IMG/VR virus record: IMGVR_UViG_3300020045_001097
Location: 1-35,392 of that record
Reading direction: 5' to 3' (one strand)
Origin: a virus
Taxonomy: Duplodnaviria; Caudoviricetes
Length of the DNA: 35,392 nucleotides
Shown here: positions 2,470-35,392 of the stretch, piece by piece
Layout: each line of letters starts with the position of its first letter
Position numbering within the stretch: position 1 is the first letter of the stretch
Notes under the pieces: generated by a model
The model's input: only the letters and a program-made list of their open reading frames with translations
The model's database searches: none
What the model was told of the DNA's origin: nothing
Made by a program: the position numbers and the translations under genes

Positions 2470-4527
2470 ATGGCAACTTTACCTCTGGTGAAATCTGATT
2501 GGAGACGAGATACAGCAGAAGAGCCAGTAGGTAAAGTCCTTAATAGGTTCTTTGAAGAAAACCCTATGAATCTTTCAGAGGGTACTGCTATGATTGTGCG
2601 CCCCGGTTTGCGTAGGTGGGTCTATTTAGACGGTTCGTCTATCTTGGGTCTTTATTCACAAGACGGCGCTTTTGATAATCATTTGTTTGCCATTCAAAGT
2701 AACAAAGTTCGTAGGATTCGACCTGATGGGACTTTTACAGGAAACTTAACTACTGCTTTTACAGATCGAATTACTTCTAATAATAGAGGTTGTTTCTCAA
2801 ATGCAATTGGCGCGATTCCTTCTTATTTCTTTTTCGTACGGGAAGGAATCCTTGATTGCTACTGTAATTCACCGGTAGCCACCGCTTCTTTAGTATTTAC
2901 TGGTACTCCTGAGAACAATTCTATTGTTACTATAGGTGGTATTTACTATAAGTTTACTAATGCGACTGTTGATACAGGAACACCTGACGGTTCTTCAAGC
3001 AGTCCCTACTTAGTAGCAATTGGAACGTTTCTTTCAGACTCTATATCTAATCTAAGTAAAGCTGTGAATGGAACAGGCACCCCCGGGACAGACTACTCTA
3101 CAGCAACTGTAAAGAATACACTAGCTAACGCTAACATTCTTACAGCAGACACTATCCAGTTTTACGCTACGGTAGGTGGTGTAGTAGGTAACTCTACCGC
3201 AGTTACGGTATCTGCCACGACAGTTATGACTTGGAGTAGTTCAACACTAGTGGGTGGTTCAAATACAGGTGAAGAAACTAAAGCGTATCCTGTACCATTG
3301 CCAGCAGATGAAAGTGATCTTTTCCTTAGAGAGATTGAAGTAAACCAAGTAGTAAGTATTGGTTCTTATGTCCTAGTAACAGTGAACTCCAGATACAATG
3401 GAACTTCAGGGAGATTCTACTGGATTAATCCCGGAGAGACTTGGATTGATCCCCTCTCGTACGCAACTGCTGAAAGTAACCCTGACAGTATTGTTTCCAT
3501 ACGAGTAGTTGGAGATAAAGTCTGGTTCCTTGGAAGAGACTCGATTGAGGTCTGGACTATTACTGGAGACCCCTTCTTACCATTCAATAAGATTGCTGGG
3601 TTAACGATTAACTTTGGGTCGCTTGAAGGCACAGACGTTACACTTAATAACACTCTTATCTTTGCTGAACCAACTGGAGTTGTGTACGCTGTAAACAATG
3701 GTCTTCAACGAATTTCTACTAATTCAATTGAAGAACGTATTAGAGTGTTTCAACAAGGGTTGAACTTCTATAATGAAACAGACATAGCTAATCAGTTTAG
3801 AGCGTGGACTCTTCAAGCCGATGGTCACATGTTCTACGTACTAAGTCTTGGAAGGCAAGAAACGCTTGTGTATGACATGTCTACTCAACAGTGGGCATCT
3901 TGGGCAAACTTTAATTCAGCATTCTTCAGACAGCACTCAGGTGTTAAAGTGTTTGATACAGTTGAAGTAGACTACCCAGATTTAACTCTTAATGTTAGCA
4001 ATCAAACTATTGTAGGTGATATTGATTCTGGAAGACTTTGGGTTGTTTCCCCTAACTATAGGTTTGACGATCAATACAACGATGAAGAGAAAACTTTTGT
4101 TATTCAAACCCAAATAACTTGCGGGGTTCCTGCAAGAATGAGAGATACTGTTAAATGTAACGAAATCTTTCTCACTGGTTCGATTGGGGCACCTTCCGCA
4201 GATATGGAAGTTTTCTTCCTTAAAGATGGTGACACAGGAGCGCAACTTACAGACGGGGAAGGTGGTCCATTCTTGTACGAAGTAGACGATCAGTTTACTC
4301 CACAGGGATTGCTTATTCAAGGTGAGCCTACCGCAGTTGTAGGTCTTGAAGTAAGTGATGATAACGGTCGTACGTGGGGTAATATGGGTTTTGTTCAGCT
4401 TGTGTCTGGTCAGTGGAACACTGAGGTTGTGTGGCGTAGTCTAGGCGTTATTCAAGCTCCCGGCAGGGTGTTTAGGTTTACAGACTACGGTTCAATGACT
4501 CGTATTGATGGAGTTGATATGCGATGA
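2470..4527 (+). CDS. P22 gp10-like tail hub / packaged DNA stabilisation protein
   Basis: Motifs YATAESNPDSIV...VWFLGRDSIEVW, ISTNSIEERI, QADGHMFYVL, TLVYDMSTQQW and LEVSDDNGRTW...VVWRSLG match gp10-like hubs; RBS AAGGA. Confidence 0.85.
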   Translation: MATLPLVKSDWRRDTAEEPVGKVLNRFFEENPMNLSEGTAMIVRPGLRRWVYLDGSSILGLYSQDGAFDNHLFAIQSNKVRRIRPDGTFTGNLTTAFTDRITSNNRGCFSNAIGAIPSYFFFVREGILDCYCNSPVATASLVFTGTPENNSIVTIGGIYYKFTNATVDTGTPDGSSSSPYLVAIGTFLSDSISNLSKAVNGTGTPGTDYSTATVKNTLANANILTADTIQFYATVGGVVGNSTAVTVSATTVMTWSSSTLVGGSNTGEETKAYPVPLPADESDLFLREIEVNQVVSIGSYVLVTVNSRYNGTSGRFYWINPGETWIDPLSYATAESNPDSIVSIRVVGDKVWFLGRDSIEVWTITGDPFLPFNKIAGLTINFGSLEGTDVTLNNTLIFAEPTGVVYAVNNGLQRISTNSIEERIRVFQQGLNFYNETDIANQFRAWTLQADGHMFYVLSLGRQETLVYDMSTQQWASWANFNSAFFRQHSGVKVFDTVEVDYPDLTLNVSNQTIVGDIDSGRLWVVSPNYRFDDQYNDEEKTFVIQTQITCGVPARMRDTVKCNEIFLTGSIGAPSADMEVFFLKDGDTGAQLTDGEGGPFLYEVDDQFTPQGLLIQGEPTAVVGLEVSDDNGRTWGNMGFVQLVSGQWNTEVVWRSLGVIQAPGRVFRFTDYGSMTRIDGVDMR

Positions 4528-24029: not shown

Positions 24030-24058
24030 ATAATACCAGCTCTTGAACATCTTGTCAA
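24030..24058 (-). promoter_or_regulatory. sigma70 promoter for the replication operon
   Basis: TTGACA-17 nt-TATTAT with TGn; the -35 box overlaps the ATP-grasp stop codon. Confidence 0.8.
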
Positions 24059-29714: not shown

Positions 29715-29743
29715 TTGACAACTCGTACAAAAGGTGATATAAT
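29715..29743 (+). promoter_or_regulatory. Perfect-consensus sigma70 promoter oriented antisense to the local genes
   Basis: TTGACA (29715-29720)-17 nt-TATAAT (29738-29743) with TGn extension. Confidence 0.8.
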
Positions 29744-34132: not shown

Positions 34133-34199
34133 TAATCCTGCATGATTACAGGTGGAAGGGCGCGCTATGATAGATTATAGACACGCCCTAACATTTGCA
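34133..34199 (-). ncRNA. Two-hairpin RNA motif, copy B
   Basis: UGCA-A-AUGUUA-GGGCGUG/CGCGCCC-UUCCA-CCUGUA/UGCAGG-AUUA; compensatory changes relative to copy A. Confidence 0.6.
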
Positions 34200-34644: not shown

Positions 34645-35188
34645 TATAGTGGCTAGAGCCACGCCATAGCGCAGCTACTAGGTTAGGATTAGTGGAACTA
34701 TTGTATTACCAATAGTCATCACAAGCCTAACGCTTGCTTGCTTGCTAACACGTTAGGGTACATACAGAGAATACAACAATCCCCTATTGTAGAGCCTAAT
34801 CGTGGGCGGTATATACATATCCCCCTGTGGTCTTAAGACACGCCCTATGCGCCATACAAAGATGGTACACAGGATTACCCTAAGCGAAAGATAGCCGGTT
34901 TTACCCGCTCCGCCGCGACCAGCCAACCGTCTCCCGGTCTGGTCATACACACGATACCTTGCGGTAGCTACAAGATTACTGACTCCCTAGCACGGTACTT
35001 GATTCCCATTGCTAGCTCATTGCCATTGCTTGCGTGCAAGTATAGTTGCCTATACAAATCCCCTACTTGTCAGGTAGAGTGTCGGACAATCCTTGGCACG
35101 TCTCCAAGGCGTCTAACTAATTGCTTTTTACGGTAAGCCACACCGATGGTCAACACGTATTACTACTTAGCCCTACCGAGCGAAGCTC
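34645..35188 (-). ncRNA. Candidate large structured non-coding RNA (~540 nt)
   Basis: No credible ORF; more than ten hairpins, two GCAA tetraloops, a canonical kink-turn (34980-35025), and a long-range helix UUAGGGUA/UACCCUAA. Confidence 0.55.
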
Positions 35189-35392
35189 TTACCCTATCAG
35201 TTGCGTTGAATCAGTATAACCTTTCCAAGCGCGTTCGATAAGCGTAGGTCGCAATCCGTTAGCTAAGTTAATCTTGACGATTGCCATAACCTTATCGCGT
35301 TGCTTGCCTTGCTTCGATGCTTCCTCTCTTACAAGGCGCATTGACAGCTTGTCAAGCATGCGTTCCTTAGCGCGTTTCTTGCGTTCATTACG
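35189..35392 (-). CDS. Basic hypothetical protein, 5'-truncated by the window edge
   Basis: Open frame RNERKKRAKERMLDKLSMRLVREE...STQLIG* running off the window. Confidence 0.55.
   Translation of the reverse strand, partial: RNERKKRAKERMLDKLSMRLVREEASKQGKQRDKVMAIVKINLANGLRPTLIERAWKGYTDSTQLIG

Follow-up and report, generated by a model that had tools for sequence, protein, structure and literature searches.

The early end of this uncultured bacterial virus raises the question of whether a 544-nt interval, which heads ~23 kb of co-oriented minus-strand genes, encodes a large structured RNA and, if so, what such an RNA would do for the phage. The window analysed here is the whole virus record, a linear sequence of 35,392 nt with an estimated completeness of 73%.

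Setting of the gene-free interval

Matches to the 35 ORFs scanned include an amidoligase cluster, a primase/helicase, a family A DNA polymerase, a ribonucleotide reductase and podophage virion proteins. Among cultured phages, Lentibacter phage ICBM1 and Roseobacter phage SIO1 match best (33-39% identity); we take both to be members of the Zobellviridae, and because of these matches we regard the window as a fragment of a Zobellviridae-like podophage. A T7-type RNA polymerase (PF00940) is matched neither in the window nor in four of four complete relatives; among the controls both Autographiviridae match (2/2), and LUZ24 and GP100 do not. The assignment to an alphaproteobacterial host is a guess, made from -10 hexamers that lack the last T (accessible text of PMC7703639). 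Nine intrinsic terminators were found, four of them on the minus strand, against 16 in shuffled sequence, and strong internal promoters are predicted at 24058 and 18546. ARAGORN detects no tRNA genes in the window. A perfect sigma70 consensus promoter (29715-29743, plus strand) is directed antisense into the amidoligase cluster. The features discussed below are as follows.

35189..35392, minus strand: first early gene, encoding a small protein with an Arg/Lys-rich N-terminal helix; the contig end cuts off ~3 codons
35125..35153, minus strand: sigma70-type promoter-like site, TTGACC-17 nt-TAAAAA, predicted source of the RNA by pattern match
35110..35115, minus strand: TAGACG, candidate -10-like sigma pause element and also the 5' strand of P1; recurs in relatives
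34682..35118, minus strand: predicted structured RNA of ~435 nt, with 15 helices and 73 pairs compared with homologue L021
35040..35117, minus strand: 5' domain, comprising irregular hairpin P1 (35117-35081), P2 with loop CUGACAA (35079-35061) and P3 (35055-35040)
34980..35025, minus strand: P4 hairpin, whose K-turn pattern is seen in this phage alone; the outer helix is kept in L021
34805..34966, minus strand: middle domain, with P6 (34944-34917), a triloop hairpin (34905-34897) and a long-range GGCGG/CCGCC pairing (34914-34910 with 34809-34805); pairings beyond these three are ambiguous
34749..34804, minus strand: P9/P10 long hairpin, with the highest sequence conservation of the element and pair probabilities of 0.83-0.88
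34732..34746, minus strand: unpaired linker made up of GCAA repeats in tandem; the L021 sequence is almost the same
34682..34731, minus strand: P11/P12, a long irregular hairpin that lacks a U tract and is predicted to be the 3' end or a processing site
34133..34197, minus strand: downstream irregular hairpin motif, copy 1 (repeat families D5 and D6), apparently RNase III-like; also in L021 and L020
33441..33499, minus strand: copy 2 of this motif, from the repeat-family search; motif also in L021 and L020
33505..34083, minus strand: phrog_1448 conserved early protein, the anchor for the homologue search

The first-pass annotation had pointed to flanking small basic proteins, and the upstream one proves to be a real conserved gene: its homologues (P0015-P0024 and a 16-member alignment) define a family of 70-110 aa with an Arg-rich N terminus. 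It has no family match in Pfam, PHROG or PDB and no usable match in the ESM Atlas; an eL39 match at E 0.43 was taken as compositional. Composition and size fit an N-type small Arg-rich protein, and the predicted model of the L021 homologue contains a helix of 44 residues (4-47) followed by a low-confidence C-terminal half (pLDDT 68.6). Within the interval, the ORF at 34753-34950 is not conserved, since its L021 counterpart has stops in all three frames and the best tblastn match has an E-value of 0.15, in agreement with the proposal that the interval is non-coding. Downstream of the RNA, the start codon of a 49-aa ORF pairs with its ribosome-binding region in a minus-strand hairpin (34647-34630) that is not seen in L021. 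The downstream irregular hairpins (34197-34133, 33499-33441; position 3892 in L021) precede early genes and have both sides of the internal loop conserved in sequence; judged by shape, they may be RNase III-like.

A fold shared with a second phage

Folding energy alone is unconvincing because neighbouring windows fold better than the interval itself. The interval had been expected to fold better than shuffles, and its minus strand does so (z -2.76, with 1 of 100 shuffles as good; plus strand z -0.75), but modestly, as z varies from +0.65 to -2.88 among 150-nt windows inside it and falls to between -4.6 and -5.3 in neighbouring windows. The homologue L021 came from searching metagenomes with the phrog_1448 alignment; its phrog_1448 protein is 57% identical to that of the window. 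The locus is syntenic, with the same first gene, a gap of ~500 nt (z -2.79), small ORFs, the same downstream hairpin motif and then phrog_1448. The strand bias of folding is strong in both phages.

In a comparison of these two sequences, for which the helices were hand-chosen after both had been seen, 72 of the 73 pairs hold: 43 are identical, four are changed on one side and 25 on both, and one is broken. Sliding the 3' strands by 1-3 positions leaves only 22-36 of the 73 paired. The 5' domain contains 12 double changes among 25 pairs and the P11/P12 hairpin seven among 13. G-U pairs and bulges are conserved, stems are not conserved in sequence, and the conserved unpaired parts (the loop, the GCAA linker and the P9 region) are ~70% conserved over 170 nt, compared with the 57% identity of the next protein. 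A covariance model of window positions 35125-35034 alone finds L021 2998-3093 with a rough E-value of 5.5e-8 in 89,885 bases (next match 0.15), a segment left unaligned by BLAST at E up to 1. A second model, R2 (34810-34681, window only), finds L021 at a similarly rough E of 3.4e-11 and nothing else in 54 loci. Neither window-only model finds a third homologue, and there is no DNA homologue of either RNA among 50,697 phage records. The whole fold rests on two sequences, those of the window and L021. Folding a crude pairwise alignment, padded with gaps, with alifold gave an out-of-register and uninformative result. In L021 a predicted long stem joins sequence preceding the promoter to the middle domain; it is not favoured in the window.

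Judged from these sequences, the compensatory changes support the view that the stretch is a real structured non-coding RNA. Rfam 15 gives no matches at gathering score (best E 7, in the window) and none in the leaders of relatives, so that the proposal of a large structured RNA absent from Rfam holds up. Cores of group I/II introns, tmRNA and RNase P are likewise absent by Rfam and ARAGORN, and the flanking genes are uninterrupted. The RNA is undescribed: we found no description of it in the published literature, and overlap with a short candidate of Fremin 2023 is possible, the candidates in the accessible text of that paper being at most 151 nt (PMC10690425).

The limits of the RNA do change. 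It likely starts near 35118, at the foot of P1, because the promoter-like site at 35153-35125 lies in the same register in L021, just after the Arg-rich gene. The RNA therefore probably runs from 35118 to 34682 on the minus strand (~435 nt), and the earlier boundaries of 34645..35188 should be moved. Terminator prediction does not score the P11/P12 hairpin as a terminator.

All 18 motif strings named in the first-pass annotation are found in place on the minus strand, but the helices built from them fare unevenly. The hairpins at 35109-35091, 35079-35061, 35055-35040 and 34944-34917, together with the outer stem of the K-turn hairpin, are kept in L021. The 8-bp long-range helix UUAGGGUA/UACCCUAA, in contrast, has a pair probability of at most 0.02 and four of its eight pairs are broken in L021; the 3' strand of this helix pairs within the conserved P9 instead (0.83-0.88). 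The helix CGGUAGG/CUUACCG has a probability of 0 and lies upstream of the likely start, and a hand alignment to L021 shows nothing that corresponds to the hairpin at 34966-34955. The K-turn pattern (35021/34985), a 3-nt bulge with tandem G.A/A.G between two helices, is present in the window but absent from the L021 hairpin. It is uncommon by chance (found in 4.6%, 1.6% and 0% of shuffles at three levels of stringency, n = 500), its outer helix has a probability of only 0.30-0.34 in the window, and a loose match occurs in one of 17 relatives. L021 has another sequence in place of the GCAA tetraloop at 35049-35046. The suggested signs of tertiary folding (K-turn, GNRA loops and 8-bp helix) are therefore either not conserved or not favoured.

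Layout and short motifs in relatives

Many relatives have a common layout, in which an Arg-rich gene and a promoter-like site are followed by a gap of 400-600 nt with U-GA-CA or U-AG-CA loops, and their folds differ. Layout and short motifs are thus common to the group, with no demonstrable common fold, because the window models find no third homologue. In many relatives a long leader occurs without the Arg-rich gene, and some have only short leaders. The pattern TTG-17-TA occurs from -40 to +130 of the Arg-rich gene's stop in 13 of 18 loci (including two pairs of close kin) versus 9 of 213 background windows; it is a loose pattern, with 17 sites in 23.4 kb of the minus strand. TAGACG lies 4-12 nt after the -10 hexamer in six of the 13 promoter-bearing loci, its frequency in downstream DNA being 0.12 per kb, and in L043 and L054 promoter-like sites have this hexamer as their -10 element. 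The gaps of relatives (417-607 nt) have z-scores of -2.1 or lower in 12 of 12 cases, which is weak evidence, as the antisense strand is as low or lower in 7 of 12, and five of 11 coding controls have z-scores no higher than -2.67 (12 shuffles each).

A hairpin with the loop N-U-GA-CA-N or N-U-AG-CA-N is present in 14 of 18 leaders of the discovery set, for which boundaries were set by hand and some loops coincide with -35 boxes. In new loci it is found in 11 of 33, versus two on the antisense strand and a shuffle maximum of six. These new loci derive from 40 of 80 terminase-anchored viral loci, after exclusion of nine that repeated earlier contigs and of those with short upstream flanks, together with L115, the only locus used from a terminase genome scan that gave mostly distant prophage matches; four near-duplicates and four loci shorter than 2,300 nt were dropped before counting. 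Nothing was found in viral scans with two proteins of the amidoligase cluster, with alignment A1 or with one DNA pattern, nor in a genome scan with alignment A2. Across 33 leaders TAGCAA occurs 31 times against 5.7 expected (10 on the other strand) and TGACAA 25 times against 4.3 (5 on the other strand). The window interval has 10 copies of GCAA, against a shuffle mean of 2.2 and a maximum of 6. The two loop types interchange in homologous stems (window/L021 and L054/L079). A search for a kissing partner of the conserved loop gave no consistent candidate.

Among more distant phages, the leaders of LUZ24 and JB8 are not unusually stable (LUZ24 z -0.64, without the loop motif), whereas that of GP100, a cultured distant relative, is (z -3.63 sense and -2.66 antisense). 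An identical 14-nt motif occurs in two uncultured relatives and cultured phage GP100 (L076 996, L102 469, L196 1370). L022 (805-1125) and L057 (~2134-2394) have the same long stem around unrelated ORFs of 60-62 aa within the leader, with a matching stem in L064. L015 (~3441-3956, minus strand) carries, relative to L025, a 171-aa reverse-strand ORF inserted in the leader, the end of which resembles the terminase promoter region. L014, L024, L026, L027, L036 and L018 form a separate leader subfamily with a common 3' domain and several homologues. Single tRNAs lie 1-2 kb downstream in L022 and L024. L021 (4953-5145) and L111 encode an early-gene ORF of Ser-Trp/Ser-Gly/Ser-Arg dipeptide repeats.

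Possible roles of the leader

To our knowledge few RNA-based antitermination systems have been described, and large phage RNAs mostly have no assigned function. In the lambda Q region the order is gene, promoter, pause-like element and long leader, and the same order is found here. Lambda N/nut and Q with the pR' leader also involve a small protein with an Arg-rich N terminus (accessible text of PMC8632103 and PMC9378689). Unlike those systems, the first gene has no sequence match to the N or Q families, the RNA lacks a U-tract terminator and many relatives have the leader but not the gene. The put RNA of lambdoid phage HK022, as described in the available text of PMC9378689, is ~70 nt long with two stems and follows an early promoter; it binds the zinc-binding domain of beta' and suppresses termination. 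It resembles the present case in being a structured RNA within the nascent early transcript, with a host-polymerase promoter upstream and a -10-like element near the start (PMC9378689). Here too the RNA follows a promoter-like site, but in place of a ~70-nt double hairpin it is, from sequence, a multi-domain element of ~435 nt with at least 10 helices. In LUZ24, gene-free units of 341-760 nt arise from five early sigma70 promoters and all end at 998 before gp1, and reads also continue into gp1/gp2 (PMC10914365, available text). LUZ24 also has a phrog_1448-type gene in the same early position. Unlike the window leader, that of LUZ24 folds no better than shuffles and is without the loop motif, so it is a precedent for transcription only.

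We favour, with a probability of roughly 0.4, a cis-acting early leader that would attenuate or antiterminate host transcription in the manner of put or Q; such an RNA would likely help host RNA polymerase to carry on into the early genes. All the functional steps that follow are inferences. Host sigma70 polymerase would initiate near 35118 and pause at the -10-like TAGACG, so that the 5' domain has time to fold. The RNA, possibly together with the Arg-rich first-gene protein bound to the loop or the GCAA linker, would then touch the polymerase, and the long untranslated transcript would be shielded from pausing or Rho. Some transcripts would end or be cut at the 34731-34682 hairpin to give a discrete ~435-nt RNA, and the remainder would read through. 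This reading draws on the conserved pairing (25 double changes, against slid controls), on the promoter-like site, which keeps its register in both phages and recurs at 13 of 18 loci, on TAGACG after the promoter, on the absence of PF00940 from the window and the complete relatives, and on the existence of LUZ24 early leaders as both discrete RNAs and read-through transcripts (PMC10914365). The order of Arg-rich gene, promoter, -10-like element, leader, hairpin and operon further parallels N, Q and put. Against it, put is six times shorter; boxA is absent, with 0 of 30 leaders within two mismatches of the consensus; there are few intrinsic terminators to overcome, and strong internal promoters at 24058 and 18546; the promoter pattern is loose; the protein partner is inconstant and some relatives have short leaders only; and the window models find no third homologue. 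Pairing within P1 could also be the reason for the conservation of TAGACG.

The main alternative, possible though somewhat doubtful, is that the RNA acts in trans, whereby it would be freed at the 3' hairpin and titrate a host RNA-binding or defence protein through short repeated motifs, namely the GCAA linkers and the U-GA-CA/U-AG-CA loops, which resemble anticodon loops. Such a decoy would account for the excess of GCAA, TAGCAA and TGACAA, the recurrence of the loop hairpin in both the first set and the new loci, the swapping of loop types, the persistence of short motifs while folds diverge and the discrete leader RNAs of LUZ24 (PMC10914365). This RNA nevertheless has one such loop only, just 13 of 164 motif occurrences fall within stems of at least four pairs, the TGACA excess is partly due to promoter -35 boxes, and a terminator is lacking. 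A passive 5' leader, with helices that stabilise the early mRNA, hide it from Rho or nucleases and provide processing sites, and with no specific partner, is unlikely. Gene-free early ends are common among podophages and ordinary as such, stems change freely, and the long stems of L022 and L057 surround small ORFs as processing brackets would, but this reading fits poorly with unpaired parts better conserved than the next protein and with the ordinary stability of the LUZ24 and JB8 leaders.

Size and number of helices recall GOLLD, ROOL and OLE, which are phage-borne, several hundred nt long and without assigned function; GOLLD and ROOL often lie beside tRNA islands and self-assemble into RNA-only cages (accessible text of PMC12286853). 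An RNA-only assembly or ribozyme of this kind would suit relatives that tolerate ORFs inside loops, as the GOLLD linker can hold tRNAs (PMC12286853), but we consider it quite improbable here: there is no Rfam match and no tRNA or tRNA island in the window, relatives do not share a conserved core or a set of pseudoknots, the conserved loop has no consistent partner and the K-turn is not conserved. Inverted repeats acting at the DNA level beside early promoters, as operators or as entry or origin signals with no RNA role, are very improbable. The antisense strand does fold as well or better in 7 of 12 relatives and some hairpins overlap -35 boxes; against this stand the strong strand bias in the window and L021, the conservation of G-U pairs and bulges, and stems that are not conserved in sequence.

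This element has support from covariation, a promoter and a 3' end that are predicted, a candidate partner protein and, in GP100, a distant relative in culture with a structured leader, and the question of cis or trans action is therefore open to direct testing. A broader proposal, which we regard as rather unlikely, is that in an uncultured Zobellviridae-like clade a new class of modular RNAs of 400-700 nt, with an interchangeable U-GA-CA/U-AG-CA loop, heads the early operon and, with an N-like Arg-rich protein, reprograms host RNA polymerase or decoys a host defence factor. If true, phages other than the lambdoid ones would possess a takeover system based on RNA and several times the size of put.
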